DNA of 64,000 nucleotides from Bacteroidia bacterium (GTDB lineage: Bacteria > Bacteroidota > Bacteroidia > 2-12-FULL-35-15). Position 1 is the stretch's first letter, and each line of letters starts with the position of its first letter. The stretch spans positions 8,350 to 72,349 of the forward strand of contig DASWNK010000084.1 of NCBI GenBank assembly GCA_036399275.1, read 5' to 3'. Both the position numbers and the translations under genes were made by a program. Below are positions 598 through 5,206 of the stretch, piece after piece. Under the pieces are notes generated by a model that ran no database searches, was not told where the DNA came from, and was given only the letters and a program-made list of their open reading frames with translations.

Positions 598-1479
598 ATG
601 AAAACAAAATTCCTCAACTCAATTGCTATTATGGGTCTCATGACCTTTCTCGCAGGACCCTTAAATTCATTTGCTCAGGACAACGTCGGTATAGGAACCA
701 ACACTCCTAACGCCAGTGCAATCTTGGAAATGCTCTCTACCAACAAAGGTGTTCTTATTCCAAGAATGAATACAGCGGGTATGAATGCCATCAGCTCGCC
801 AGCAAATTCATTGTTAATTTACAACACAGACTCTATGTGTTATTGCTTCTATCGTGTTCCGACAGCTTCATGGCTGTCGATGTGCAGCGCAATGACAGGA
901 AGTACAGGGGCAACTGGTCCAACAGGAGTTTCGGGAGCGACCGGGGCTGCGGGACCTACCGGCGCAACAGGTGCAGCTGGAGTAACGGGTGCCACGGGAG
1001 TAACTGGTGTAACAGGTGCTACGGGAGTAGCTAATTTTTATTCACTTGTCGGCTCGACAGATATTACCACAAGCTCTGCTGTATACGCTGCGATGGCTGG
1101 AACAACCATTACTTTCACTCCGACAAAATCAAAGATTTATCTGTATTCAACAGTCGCAGGTTATGTGGATGTTTCTGTTCGTGTACCGTGTTATGTTTCT
1201 GCCAGGATAAGAAATGTCACCAGCGGCACTACAATCAAAGGTGCTGCAGTACTTGCAAATACGATGTTTGATATCGTGACTCCTTCAGAGACTACTGCCT
1301 ATACAGCAACATCATACGATATCGCAATTGTAACCCCCTATCCAGTTACTCCCGGCGTTCCAATTACATTGCGTTTAGAATGGAGGGTGGTATGGGGCGA
1401 TAATTTAAATCATCCAGCCTACAATTATCCGATAGGAGATCCGGAGGAAAGTCACAGAACCTTAATAATTATGGAATAA
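598..1479 (+). CDS. Secreted collagen-like (Gly-X-Thr) repeat protein, paralog A
   Basis: 293-aa ORF with a signal peptide ending SFAQD. A conserved module of about 70 aa ([18 protein letters not shown]...[15 protein letters not shown]) is shared with the genes at 2026 and 3413. It has 15 uninterrupted G-X-Y triplets. The C-terminal domain of about 150 aa ends HRTLIIME and is homologous to that of paralog B. Confidence 0.8.
898..1032 (+). repeat. Coding triplet (9-bp GGN-GCN-ACN type) repeat, 15 G-X-Y units
   Basis: Translation reads [45 protein letters not shown]. Confidence 0.9.
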
Positions 1480-1492
1480 AAAAATAAAAAAG

Positions 1493-1795
1493 ATGGAAAA
1501 GATGAAAAATAATCATTCAACCCTGTCATTCGTGGTATTCTTTACGATAAGCGCTTCAGTAAGCCTTCATGCACAAGATACCCCGAAAAAAACGACAGTA
1601 GATCACCGCAGTGAAACCAGCAAAACGGAAAACGTACCAACAGCTAAACAGGAGCAGCAGAGCATTATTACTAAAAAAACAACTGCTGTTGCAAACAAGC
1701 CTAGCGAAGATCCGGTTATTGACAAAACGCAAATGAAGGAAAAAACAGTTCATCAAACAAACAGATCTAAAACTACCACATTGGAAAAAAAGTAA
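1493..1795 (+). CDS. Small secreted low-complexity (Lys/Thr/Glu/Gln-rich) protein, partner of paralog A
   Basis: 100-aa ORF starting 14 nt after paralog A. It has a hydrophobic signal peptide ending LHAQD followed by a disordered K/T/E/S-rich sequence. A gene of the same type follows paralog B. Confidence 0.55.
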   Translation: MEKMKNNHSTLSFVVFFTISASVSLHAQDTPKKTTVDHRSETSKTENVPTAKQEQQSIITKKTTAVANKPSEDPVIDKTQMKEKTVHQTNRSKTTTLEKK

Positions 1796-1876
1796 CTATT
1801 TTCTAGCGCGGGTGGATTATTGTGCCTCCCTGCAGAACTTTAACTAGCTATTACTTTACTATCCCATAAAAAACGC

Positions 1877-1906
1877 CCTATTTCGTAAACAATAGGATGT
1901 TTTTTT
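1877..1906 (+). terminator. Possible rho-independent terminator
   Basis: cctatt (1877-1882) pairs with aatagg (1891-1896) and is followed by atg plus T7. The stem is short and AT-rich. Confidence 0.35.
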
Positions 1907-1996
1907 ATTGTGGGAACCCTGAAAACGGGCTAAAAAATATTTTCAAATCCCCCTGAAATTTCCCAACACACTTAAGGATTTTAAGATCAAATTTCT

Positions 1997-2004
1997 TATA
2001 TTTG
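1997..2004 (+). promoter_or_regulatory. Putative -7 box TAnnTTTG for paralog B
   Basis: TATATTTG lies 21 nt upstream of the ATG at 2026. I did not see a clear -33 TTTG. Confidence 0.35.
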
Positions 2005-3063: not shown

Positions 3064-3070
3064 TTGCATC

Positions 3071-3319
3071 ATGAAAATACATCTATATCTTATTTCAGGG
3101 TTTCTTTTTTTGAATCAATTAGCTGTCGCACAAGATGGCGTAAGATCTTCAAAGACAGAAAACAATACTCAAGAAAAAAAAACGGCAACAAAAGCGGATG
3201 TCAAAAATGTTAGAGTTTCCACAAAAGACTCTACATCAAATAGTGTCAAAAATGATAACCCGCGCATAAACGCCGAAAAAACAAGCCAGAATAAAGCAGT
3301 AGTGCCTAAGCAGAATTAA
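3071..3319 (+). CDS. Small secreted low-complexity (Lys/Thr/Asn/Ser-rich) protein, partner of paralog B
   Basis: 82-aa ORF starting 8 nt after paralog B. It has a signal peptide ending AVAQD and a disordered K/T/N/S-rich remainder. Architecture matches the 1493-1795 gene. Confidence 0.55.
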   Translation: MKIHLYLISGFLFLNQLAVAQDGVRSSKTENNTQEKKTATKADVKNVRVSTKDSTSNSVKNDNPRINAEKTSQNKAVVPKQN

Positions 3320-3412
3320 AATAGAACTCTCTCATTTATCATAAGGATTCATTTCCATTAATTAGTGTTGATTGAAGAAAATTTAATTTACATATTACAT
3401 AAATCAGATAAG

Positions 3413-5155
3413 ATGAAAAAAAAACTACTAAAGTCCATTGCTTTTCTTAGCATTACCTTAATGAGCTTGCCTTCATTTGCACAGGATAACGTAGGTATAG
3501 GAACGAATACTCCTGATGCAAGCGCTATCTTGGAAATGCTATCCGCAAATAAAGGATTGTTGATTCCGCGAATGAATACTGCTGGAATGCTGGCTATTCC
3601 TGCTCCTGCCAATTCATTATTGATTTACAACACCGATTCAATGTGTTATTGCTTTTATAGAGTTCCTACTACATCATGGATTTCACTATGCACAGGCACA
3701 GGCGGCGGTTCTGGTACAGCAGGCGCTACGGGCCCTACCGGTGCTACAGGAAGTGCTGGCACAGCTGGAGCTACGGGAGCAACTGGCCCGACAGGATTAA
3801 CAGGTGCTACCGGCGCAGGAACTACAGGCTCAACCGGTGCTACCGGCCCGACCGGTTCAACAGGATCGACAGGAGCAGTTGGCCCGACAGGAGTTGGAAG
3901 CGGAACACCGGGAGCTACAGGCCCAACAGGACCTACTGGCTCTACCGGAACTGCAGGAGCAACCGGAGCGACTGGCTCAACGGGTCTTACTGGAGCAACT
4001 GGCTCAACAGGTGCTGCGGGAGCAACAGGTGCCACCGGAACGGCTGGAACTAATGGTACAAACGGAACAAATGGCGCTGCTGGAGCGACCGGACCTACTG
4101 GCGCAACAGGTACTGCGGGGACTAACGGAACAAACGGTGCTGCCGGTGCTACAGGCCCTACTGGCGCTGCAGGAACTAACGGTACAAATGGAGCAGCAGG
4201 AAGTGCTGGAGCGACTGGGGCAACTGGCGCGACCGGCCCAACATGGACCATTACTTCAGATAATTTTAATACAGATGGATCTCTGGCAATTGTGACGGAT
4301 ATCCCTTCTACTATTACATCAACAAATGCGGCCTGGTTATGCGCAACTAGCGCAGCAACAACCAATGCAACAACCGGCCTTCGTTTCCTGGGAACATCCA
4401 CCGCTCAGCATATGGACCTGGTTACAAACAGTACAGTAAGAGGACGCTTGTCGAATCTTGGAGAATTCTTTATTGGAACAACAGCAACCACTCTTACCGG
4501 AGATTTGATGAACGCTGTAGGAAGTGCAGCTTTTCCATGGGCAGTGAATGGGTATACCGCCCAAAATGGTGCAGGTGTATACGGCCTGCGTCAAGCAGGA
4601 GCTACAGGCACCTGGGGATCAGTACAAGGCGAATCCGATGCGTCTCTTGCTGCAAACAATTCCGGAGTATCCGGACTTGCAGGTGCTAATAGCCACAGGG
4701 GAGTTTTCGGACAAAGACCTGGAGGCGGTGCTCCAGGTATAGGGTTTGGGGGCTTATTTTTTAATGATTTGGGATATAGCGGGTCTCTATTGGTTGTATC
4801 TGACCGTACAACAAAAAAGAATATTACTCAAATTTCAGGGGCGCTTGATAAAATAATGAAGTTAAAAGGAGCGACTTATCAGTATAAAGATGAGTACCAA
4901 TATTTCCTTGGTGGCTCACACTTATATTATGGTTTCATTGCACAGGAACTGGAAGAAGTATTTCCTGACATGGTAATTGAAAAAGACATTACGCCTCCCA
5001 ATTCAAGGGCTTTCCCTACACCCAAAACAGATCTGAGCACTGTAAAAACTATTAGTCCGATTTCCTTAATTCCGGTGTTAGTTGAAGCAATGAAAGAGCA
5101 ACAAAAAGAGATTGAAGAATTAAAGAGCAAAATCAAAGCATTGGAAAACAAATAA
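3413..5155 (+). CDS. Secreted collagen-like / tail-fibre-like protein with C-terminal peptidase-S74 intramolecular chaperone domain, paralog C
   Basis: The ORF track starts at GTG 3365, but ATG 3413 ([13 protein letters not shown]...) gives a signal peptide colinear with paralogs A and B. It has the same N-terminal module and about 60 G-X-Y triplets with two interruptions. A Gly/Ala/Thr-rich middle domain follows. The C-terminus reads SDRTTKKNI...LKGATYQYK...[16 protein letters not shown]...[16 protein letters not shown], typical of the endosialidase/tail-fibre autochaperone. Confidence 0.8.
3695..4243 (+). repeat. Coding triplet repeat, about 58 G-X-Y units plus two irregular units, with nested GTN sub-repeats
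   Basis: 183 residues run from [13 protein letters not shown] to GATGATGPT. The interruptions are GAGTT and GVGS. The distal part contains repeated GTNGTN(GTN)[11 protein letters not shown] blocks. Confidence 0.9.
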
Positions 5156-5177
5156 CCAAGCCAATTCATTAAAAAAA

Positions 5178-5206
5178 AGACCATGTTGATACATGGTCTT
5201 TTTTTT
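5178..5206 (+). terminator. Rho-independent terminator of the paralog B / small protein / paralog C unit
   Basis: agaccatgt (5178-5186) pairs with acatggtct (5191-5199) and is followed by a T8 run. Confidence 0.75.

Follow-up and report, generated by a model that had tools for sequence, protein, structure and literature searches.

Organization of the fibre locus

The stretch of DNA analysed here (the window, 64,000 nt of contig DASWNK010000084.1 from a Bacteroidia bacterium) carries close to its left end three genes, termed A, B and C, whose products share one plan: a signal peptide, a 70-residue base module, a collagen-like stalk of variable length and a distal domain that changes between proteins (Table 1). 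The ORF (open reading frame) listing agrees with the initial annotation, which placed three same-strand genes at 598, 2026 and 3413; its outline of a base, a graded collagen stalk and an exchangeable distal domain is seen at this locus and again in relatives. When the six-frame translation of all 64 kb was scanned with hidden Markov models (HMMs), three modules and no more were detected (E about 1e-34 to 1e-36), together with exactly two heads of the type shared by A and B (E 1e-59 for A, 1e-69 for the other), far beyond chance. In addition, A and B are each followed by a small ORF, termed a and b, which the initial annotation did not mention.

The NCBI records name A a collagen-like protein, B a hypothetical protein and C a tail fiber domain-containing protein ('MAG TPA: Bacteroidia bacterium'). 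The NCBI call of C has 580 aa, and an upstream GTG at 3365 gives the 596 aa of the JGI call. A JGI metagenome contig carries the locus of 4,558 bp at 100% identity, and a Logan assembly contains protein B as well, so the repeat lengths of the stalks are not the artefact of one assembler.

Table 1. Coordinates of genes, protein parts and transcription signals at the fibre locus (window positions).
Feature	Position	Strand	Description
End of upstream gene	1-60	+	Final 19 codons, the rest outside the window; frame +1 closes with ..KHKYTGTVTIVK and a stop
Terminator hairpin after upstream gene	55-105	+	Inverted repeat I1, 25-nt arms, 96% complementary
Gene A	598..1479	+	293 aa; ORF listing
A, signal peptide	598-675	+	aa 1-26
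A, PTL_trimer	676-885	+	aa 27-96
A, collagen-like stalk	898-1032	+	aa 101-145; 15 Gly-X-Y triplets
A, predicted TNF/C1q-like head	1027-1476	+	aa 144-293
Small ORF a	1493..1795	+	100 aa; starts 13 nt past gene A
Weak terminator-like hairpin after ORF a	1877..1906	+	CCTATT..AATAGG followed by TTTTTTT; read by eye
Gene B	2026..3063	+	345 aa; ORF listing
B, signal peptide	2026-2097	+	aa 1-24
B, PTL_trimer	2098-2307	+	aa 25-94
B, collagen-like stalk	2311-2652	+	aa 96-209; 38 Gly-X-Y triplets
B, predicted TNF/C1q-like head	2647-3060	+	aa 208-345
Small ORF b	3071..3319	+	82 aa; starts 7 nt past gene B
Gene C	3413..5155	+	580 aa counted from ATG; ORF listing
C, signal peptide	3413-3481	+	aa 1-23
C, PTL_trimer	3482-3691	+	aa 24-93
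C, collagen-like stalk	3695-4243	+	aa 95-277; 60 Gly-X-Y triplets in three runs
C, junction and Gly/Ala-rich region	4244-4798	+	aa 278-462
C, Peptidase_S74 intramolecular chaperone	4799-5152	+	aa 463-580; SDRTTK at aa 463-468
Intrinsic terminator after gene C	5179..5206	+	GACCATG..CATGGTC followed by T8
gyrB	5382..7352	-	Right-hand border of the locus, kept in four genomes

The N-terminal base module

The base module (QDNVGIGT...SWxSxC) directly follows the signal peptide in A, B and C. As the initial annotation described, the copies are nearly identical, at 81-93% in protein and 72-83% in DNA. Nei-Gojobori analysis of the module gave saturated synonymous differences (pS = 0.79) and a low nonsynonymous distance (dN = 0.10-0.14) for the pairs A-B and A-C, and a synonymous distance (dS) of 1.42, a dN of 0.032 and a dN/dS of 0.02 for B-C, so that the proposal of old duplicates under purifying selection holds. 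The description as a '3-Cys' module applies to the window copies; in close relatives the middle Cys is a Phe, leaving two that are conserved, within this subfamily only.

The precomputed Pfam tables assign the module to PF26696 (PTL_trimer) in A, B and C, in all 28 module homologs and in the orthologues of a close relative (L001). The N-module had no match when scanned locally with Pfam and NCBIfam, the PF26696 model being missing from that Pfam copy. A profile built from 16 modules and searched against 1.84 billion cluster representatives retrieved 56,974 protein clusters at E<=1e-3, of which 34,125 also reach E<=1e-10. Among the 150 best matches, the module is present in a median of three and a maximum of 13 tandem internal copies, with the first copy at most 45 residues from the N-terminus in 89/150 and a collagen region in 6/150. 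Fusion partners in the sample include Fib_succ_major, Peptidase_S74, phage Collar, Mtd_N, C1q, Lcl_C (in one relative), Kelch and YadA_head, besides DUF2793, which overlaps the module.

With one genome taken per species, 80 module loci were kept, almost all from Bacteroidota (Chitinophagales, Flavobacteriales, Saprospiraceae, Cytophagales and Bacteroidales; among the genera are Flavobacterium, Leeuwenhoekiella and Tenacibaculum) and a few from elsewhere, such as Glaciecola and a Pseudobdellovibrionaceae metagenome-assembled genome (MAG). The Glaciecola locus lies in a complete gammaproteobacterial genome (G. amylolytica, CP034120.1, 3479941-3492150; L012), where the module is 56% identical to that of the window; modules also occur in MAGs labelled Hyphomicrobiales, Pseudobdellovibrionaceae and Paceibacteria. 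These occurrences outside Bacteroidota could reflect horizontal transfer or mis-binning.

The AlphaFold2 (AF2) monomer model of the module has a predicted local distance difference test score (pLDDT) of 81 and comprises a short helix and a three-stranded sheet. A fold search against the PDB found no significant neighbour. The weak matches (E 0.02-3) are all parts of trimeric fibres, namely TSP3/TSP4 of phage CBA120, the streptococcal phage hyaluronidase HylP and Mtd of Bordetella phage; the trimerisation domain of human collagen XV/XVIII aligns with a TMt of 0.58-0.60 and a root-mean-square deviation (rmsd) of about 2 Å over 44-45 residues, at an E of 0.8-3 that is not significant. Sequence searches of the PDB with a single module or the profile gave spurious matches only. 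Among predicted viral structures, by comparison, the module matches proteins of uncultured Caudovirales (36-48% identity, E about 1e-4), including one collagen-repeat protein and one S74 protein.

By tblastn, the module occurs in 3/50,697 deposited phage genomes. IMG/VR yielded 32 module loci (L090-L121); in 30 of them the encoded protein finishes with the module as its final ~70 residues, closing in ..W.... and the stop codon; in chromosomal proteins of Bacteroidota, by contrast, it is N-terminal or tandem-internal. Because of the 3-13 tandem copies and the C-terminal position in viral contigs, the module looks like a trimerisation or stalk unit and not a dedicated anchor. We conclude from its predicted fold and its distribution that it is probably a widespread unit of this kind, common to fibre proteins of Bacteroidota and to some phage fibres; the 'anchor module' of the initial annotation is not borne out by a family of this size and arrangement, whose sequences argue against an anchor specific to this locus. 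We found no literature on PF26696, PTL_trimer or PTL, and no experimental study of the family.

Each module also contains a D-S-M tripeptide (829-837, 2251-2259 and 3635-3643), the sole such site in A, B and C. The general O-glycosylation sequon of Bacteroidetes is D(S/T)(A/I/L/V/M/T), which this tripeptide fits as a candidate site.

The collagen-like stalk

The stalks of A, B and C comprise exactly the 15, 38 and 60 Gly-X-Y triplets that the initial annotation had counted, those of C being split by two interruptions (14+8+38). Thr occupies the Y position in 11/15 triplets of A (73%), 19/38 of B (50%) and 35/60 of C (58%), so the 'Gly-X-Thr' pattern first described is the majority pattern and not a strict one. 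All three regions match Pfam Collagen (PF01391), at 30.5, 56.2 and 72.4 bits against a gathering cut-off of 27.2. Pro is scarce and charged residues are nearly absent. Calculated at 0.286 nm per residue, the stalks would reach about 13 nm in A, 33 nm in B and 52 nm in C.

The heads of A and B

The heads of A and B (150 and 138 aa) are 40% identical and both end in HR(T/S)LIIME, as the initial annotation had noted. A profile search with the head retrieved 56 homologous clusters, none of which carries a Pfam family on the head proper. Most of them (about 50) are Bacteroidia proteins of 213-250 aa without collagen, in which the signal peptide is followed by a PTL_trimer or a shorter NVGIGT..KLHV segment and then by the head; a few carry collagen. 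Their genes are scattered among housekeeping genes and at times form paralog arrays.

The AF2 model of head B, built on the alignment of homologs, has ten β-strands, with a pLDDT of 90.9 and a predicted template modelling (TM) score (pTM) of 0.85. Foldseek returned 66 PDB matches at E<=1e-3, the best being 2wq4, the TNF-like fucose lectin domain found in BC2L-C from Burkholderia (E 2e-6, TM 0.71/0.78), followed by the Photorhabdus TNF-like lectin PLTL (9ib7, TM 0.69/0.74). Chlamydia Pgp3-CTD, the tip of the Bdellovibrio mosaic adhesive trimer (MAT) protein Bd2734 (8okw), 4-1BBL, C1QL1, a cyanophage fibre tip and ExsFA (7r1m) are among the further matches. At the sequence level, the Pfam scan found no C1q or TNF match in A or B, and none at E<=1 outside the collagen region; the profile of the 56 head homologs matched no TNF, C1q or BC2L-C chain in the PDB. 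In the structural alignments to TNF/C1q-like folds the identity is 8-16%. The predicted structure thus bears out the C1q/TNF-like jelly roll for which the initial annotation had proposed a test, and the A/B head is, as modelled, a new sequence family with a known fold.

In a separate comparison, the N-terminal segment of the collagen-less head homologs (profile positions 20-81, QNVGIGT..P..KLHVAG..) matched the Bdellovibrio MAT fibre Bd2133 (PDB 8ond_A) with an E of 1.1e-6. It connects TNF-head proteins of Bacteroidia with MAT shafts at the level of sequence, a link in which the window proteins are not involved.

The S74 tip of protein C

Protein C ends differently, in the Gly-rich region and S74 autochaperone already noted for it. 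The Peptidase_S74 domain (PF13884) reaches 63.6 bits over aa 463-521, where the cut-off is 22, with a coiled-coil tail behind it, and the chaperone region matches the phage tail-fibre chains 8jov and 6f45 of the PDB at the sequence level. The catalytic Ser-Lys motif of S74, defined as SDxxxK (PMC10769870), is intact, and C would be expected to cleave itself at Ser463. The junction that follows the collagen of C is common to longer paralogs in relatives; it precedes the Gly/Ala-rich stretch and then the S74 domain.

The locus in related genomes

The order of a PKD/CHU_C gene of the type IX secretion system (T9SS) type, one to three fibre genes with swapped heads, and gyrB on the opposite strand is kept in four genomes: that of the window and those containing the loci labelled L001, L010 and L018. 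GyrB is 92-93% identical among the window, L001 and L010, and 77% identical to L018. The window genome has three fibres (A, B and C), as has L001, where a protein with a diverged A/B-type head and its small ORF is accompanied by a C-like protein (broken in the assembly) and an 809-aa protein with another C-terminus. The two fibres of L010 are one with an A/B-family head (hhalign probability 99.2%) and a small ORF, and one of 799 aa. The single fibre of L018, again with a small ORF, bears a head unrelated by sequence; it was tried as a relative of the A/B head (hhalign probability 1.4%) and, because no relation is detectable, is not counted as TNF-like.

The fibres of about 800 aa in relatives represent a fourth type at the same locus (L001 3458-5860; L010 5923-8322). 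They consist of a PTL_trimer, collagen, the C-type junction, a long Gly/Ala/Thr-rich region and a C-terminal domain starting (T/L)IDxPLDP..K.LKH, which has no Pfam match and in L001 matches only phrog_17490 (function unknown, E 1.7e-7).

The N-modules cluster by genome and not by head type (at 682/2104/3488 in the window, 556/1978/3542 in L001 and 4654/6007 in L010). The two modules of L010 are 78% identical to each other and 60-69% to the others, and share substitutions absent elsewhere; all window modules read CYCFYR and all L001 modules CYFFYR; and module copies 1 and 2 of L001 are 97% identical in DNA. This pattern suggests that heads have been swapped onto resident bases, or that the bases have been homogenised, as by gene conversion, or that they co-evolve with a common, genome-specific partner. 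Within the window genome itself, a programmed inversion, a shufflon and recent gene conversion were considered and rejected, as all genes lie on the same strand, long inverted repeats are absent and the paralogous modules share no more than 68-76% DNA identity across 300 nt.

As the initial annotation stated, the context is that of a core chromosome. The locus is flanked by gyrB and by genes for a tetratricopeptide repeat (TPR) protein, an ATP-binding cassette (ABC) ATPase, a GT4 glycosyltransferase and MurB, and none of the neighbours checked is a phage gene. This bears on the reading that the fibres are phage-derived, either prophage remnants or the fibres of a tailocin or contractile injection system encoded elsewhere. 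The S74 chaperone of C, its many PHROG tail-fibre matches and its NCBI name would fit such an origin, as would the module in uncultured phage proteins and at 32 IMG/VR loci. The PHROG matches of full proteins were nevertheless rejected as a sign of phage origin: the tail-fibre families match C via its S74 end, the matches outside S74 are driven by collagen, and a PHROG search with the isolated heads and the middle region of C returned nothing. The head has no match in the 50,697 phage genomes and the module only three, and the module is C-terminal in viral contigs, N-terminal here. Moreover, phage and tailocin fibres assemble in the cytoplasm, whereas A, B and C have Sec signal peptides. Because of these signal peptides and the core synteny conserved in four genomes, we regard the phage reading as very unlikely.

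The small secreted proteins

The product of ORF a has a signal peptide ending ..HA↓QD, followed by 73 aa rich in Thr and Lys with a net charge of +5; that of ORF b ends its signal peptide ..VA↓QD and continues with 62 aa that contain many Lys, Asn, Ser and Thr residues, with a net charge of +6. NCBI, JGI and Logan all list ORF a as a gene. Neither product has a domain match in Pfam, NCBIfam or PHROG. In the four genomes, every short fibre gene of this locus is followed, after 5-15 nt, by a small ORF of 82-100 aa for a secreted, basic protein of low complexity (L001 1511-1759; L010 5556-5819; L018 3472-3768); no such ORF follows an S74-type or ~800-aa fibre. As a guess from this pairing, the small protein may be a trans-acting partner in the assembly or anchoring of its fibre.

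Export, location and proposed assembly

The signal peptides of A, B and C read as Sec-type and end ..FA↓Q or ..FS↓Q, and all five products (A, B, C, a and b) have Gln at +1. Gln at this position is the Bacteroidetes 'Q-rule' for substrates of signal peptidase I. We propose that A, B and C are Sec-exported homotrimeric fibres serving as adhesins or lectins, with a rough probability of 0.6 for the explanation as a whole. Sec export as homotrimers with the domain roles assigned below is very probable, and on attachment to the cell surface as adhesins or lectins we stand evenly balanced.

In the proposed assembly, signal peptidase I would cut ahead of the conserved Gln. The PTL_trimer, being the first part of the Sec substrate to emerge, could thereby register the three chains in a foldon-like manner and would form the cell-proximal base. 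The Gly-X-Thr-rich region would then zip up into a collagen-like spacer. At the distal end of A and B, the TNF/C1q-like jelly-roll trimer may bind a glycan between protomers, by analogy with the N-terminal domain of BC2L-C (BC2L-C-Nt), PLTL and the MAT tips, while the Gly-rich tip of C would be folded by the C-terminal S74 domain, which would cut itself off at Ser463. Together, the fibres would act as a set of adhesins or lectins whose binding heads differ in kind and in how far they stand from the cell. Those without a built-in chaperone are each paired with a small secreted basic, disordered protein, at a guess an accessory for assembly or anchoring.

Several findings weigh against this proposal. 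In Pfam and NCBIfam scans, A, B, C and the small ORFs lack Por_Secre_tail (PF18962), CHU_C (PF13585) and TIGR04183/TIGR04131 at E<=1, so that the initial annotation was right in seeing no T9SS sorting domain, and A, B and C have no lipobox. By the usual rules in Bacteroidota, proteins with neither a T9SS C-terminal domain (CTD) nor a lipobox are placed in the periplasm, and no surface route is evident. Furthermore, the Pro-poor, uncharged stalk, taken alone, predicts a low triple-helix stability, and its composition as a whole, Thr-rich in Y besides, makes that stability uncertain. The fold matches of the module are weak, as given above, and the four aligned small ORFs are 19-26% identical, having in common their position, signal peptide and composition.

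Because A, B and C lack both a T9SS CTD and a lipobox, a periplasmic or released location is still in contention. Periplasmic trimeric rods would act as spacers or tethers, with lectin heads on peptidoglycan or another envelope glycan; a TNF-like MAT tip does bind N-acetylglucosamine (GlcNAc) (PMC10769870). Such rods agree with a type-I signal peptide unaccompanied by a CTD or a lipoprotein Cys in an organism whose neighbouring genes do use T9SS CTDs, and with a locus kept beside housekeeping genes in four genomes. However, calculated stalks of 33 and 52 nm seem long for the periplasm, the characterised S74-chaperoned fibres and TNF-like lectins are extracellular or surface-exposed, and the swapping of heads and the varying number of paralogs in close relatives are typical of outward-facing proteins. 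Periplasmic rods are therefore an unlikely solution.

Alternatively, the proteins might be released as soluble, collectin-like lectins, free or on outer-membrane vesicles, that agglutinate particles, prey or polysaccharide. The combination of a collagen stalk and a globular head is the plan of collectins and C1q, the closest fold matches (BC2L-C and PLTL) are soluble lectins, the Pfam and NCBIfam scans found no anchoring feature, and the roughly 50 small head homologs have a module or shorter segment joined straight to the head. Yet the strong conservation of the N-module and its evolution by genome rather than by head type fit better with docking to a shared partner in the same cell, and the MAT precedent is one of surface display. 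Release is thus rather improbable, and we retain fibres attached to the producing cell as the preferred reading.

A wider and quite doubtful proposal is that PTL_trimer fibres form a phylum-wide class of envelope fibres in Bacteroidota, exported through signal peptidase I without a T9SS CTD, in which the base, evolving genome by genome, docks on a dedicated anchor and the small ORF paired with each chaperone-less fibre encodes its adaptor or trans-chaperone. If so, an unrecognised route to the surface, or envelope-spanning rods of defined length, would be new, and the small basic protein would be the functional counterpart of the S74 domain built into C.

Comparison with known fibre systems

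An invariant N-terminal domain that carries a trimeric shaft and exchangeable tips, some with S74 and some lacking it, is the plan already published for the MAT fibres of Bdellovibrio bacteriovorus (Caulton et al. 2024, PMC10769870). Their N-terminal domain presumably attaches to a surface element yet to be identified, and in their tips a pocket related to the sugar site of BC2L-C-Nt and PLTL binds GlcNAc. The two systems have in common the signal peptide, an N-terminal domain invariant among paralogs, the trimeric shaft (predicted in our case), swapped C-terminal tips in S74 and non-S74 subtypes, and many chromosomal paralogs of differing length. Both have TNF-like tips, and the Bd2734 tip found among the fold matches of head B has 2WQ4 as its own best match. 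By contrast, the MAT shaft is a β-helix or meandering β-structure and ours collagen-like; the MAT base is a β-rich domain of ~130 aa, which has no PDB entry, and ours a 70-aa α/β PTL_trimer. A sequence search of the window proteins against MAT chains in the PDB found no similarity. The present organism belongs to another phylum and has no known predatory lifestyle, and surface display, established by experiment for MAT, is a prediction here.

BclA, the exosporium filament protein of Bacillus anthracis/cereus, consists of a Gly-X-Thr collagen-like region followed by a C1q/TNF-like trimer. A and B resemble it in their Gly-X-Thr-rich collagen-like region of variable length and in the predicted C-terminal C1q/TNF-like jelly roll, and by analogy the threonines of the stalk could be O-glycosylated as in BclA. 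BclA lacks a Sec signal peptide, however, and its N-terminal motif targets the ExsFA/BxpB basal layer of a Firmicute spore, whereas the proteins here combine a Sec signal peptide with a PTL_trimer in a Gram-negative Bacteroidia genome.

In terms of fold, BC2L-C-Nt (2WQ4) and PLTL (9IB6-9) are closest to the A/B head, with a TM of 0.67-0.78 and an E of 2e-6 to 2e-5 over about 140 aligned columns. Both form jelly-roll trimers in which the fucose sites lie where protomers meet (PMC12914763). They differ in being soluble, without a collagen stalk and from Proteobacteria, and in sharing only 8-16% sequence identity with the head.

Legionella Lcl and streptococcal Scl1/Scl2 likewise have an N-terminal trimeriser and a collagen-like region with variable repeats, and an adhesive role is theirs. 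Their N- and C-domains are unrelated to those described here, and Scl is LPXTG-anchored. The NCBIfam models of Lcl/Scl type match the window proteins via the repeats only (27-81 bits against cut-offs of 325-500). Lcl is a peripheral membrane protein located extracellularly according to PMC11162425.

Collagen/S74 tail fibres of phages resemble C in its S74 end, and uncultured phage proteins contain PTL_trimer; the fibres here differ in being Sec-exported, encoded in the core chromosome and equipped with an N-terminal instead of a C-terminal module. The module model also resembles small trimerisation domains such as those of collagen XV/XVIII and the foldon type, although the multiplexin match (E 0.8-3) is not significant.

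The present system stands apart by its PTL_trimer base, by a collagen shaft that carries a BC2L-C-like head, by its phylum, by having no known sorting signal and by the paired small ORF. We found no relevant literature on collagen or C1q fibrils of Bacteroidota. The initial annotation had allowed for module and heads belonging to an already characterised family; this is so in that the module family is catalogued and the fold of the head known, but no experimental function was found in Bacteroidota. Every part is of a known kind, and current knowledge is thus not overturned, but in this phylum such a combination has yet to be characterised.

Many soils, waters and guts are dominated by Bacteroidota, whose surface proteins, as far as known, are either T9SS cargo or lipoproteins. 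The locus is part of a very large set of fibres, still untouched by experiment, without a known sorting signal (about 57,000 clusters with the base module). It is a compact way into that set, as it combines one base, stalks of three lengths, a well-modelled TNF-like head and an S74 tip beside gyrB in several genomes. The location of the fibres and the ligands of the heads would tell whether the 'mosaic trimeric adhesin' strategy of Bdellovibrio is general, and new lectin specificities and a small trimerisation tag are a possible yield.

Transcription signals and neighbouring features

The product of the gene upstream of A is a PKD/CHU_C protein with a T9SS type-B sorting domain. Its L010 orthologue has CHU_C, PKD and SprB repeats and ends in KHKYIGTVTIVK, and the contig record of the same locus shows a 1155-aa PKD_4 + CHU_C gene as the upstream neighbour. 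An Rfam scan of 1-5500 gave sub-threshold matches only, on the terminator hairpin. The hairpin past ORF a was graded weak because the consensus scan did not flag it. Ahead of gene B, a Bacteroidetes-type -7 box, TAnnTTTG (TATATTTG), can be read at 1997. Given the terminator-like hairpin past ORF a and the clear terminator past C, the transcription units look like A-a, B-b and C, and ORF a is probably co-transcribed with gene A.

The 490-nt non-coding stretch upstream of gene A contains, at 248-370, three 25-nt direct repeats (TTACATCATACTCCGATG...) with a spacing of exactly 49 nt; they may serve regulation or be what is left of a decayed repeat. Beyond gyrB, a 586-aa ORF without a Pfam match (7521-9284, minus strand) lies between gyrB and the TPR gene and is conserved at this place in both L001 and the JGI contig.

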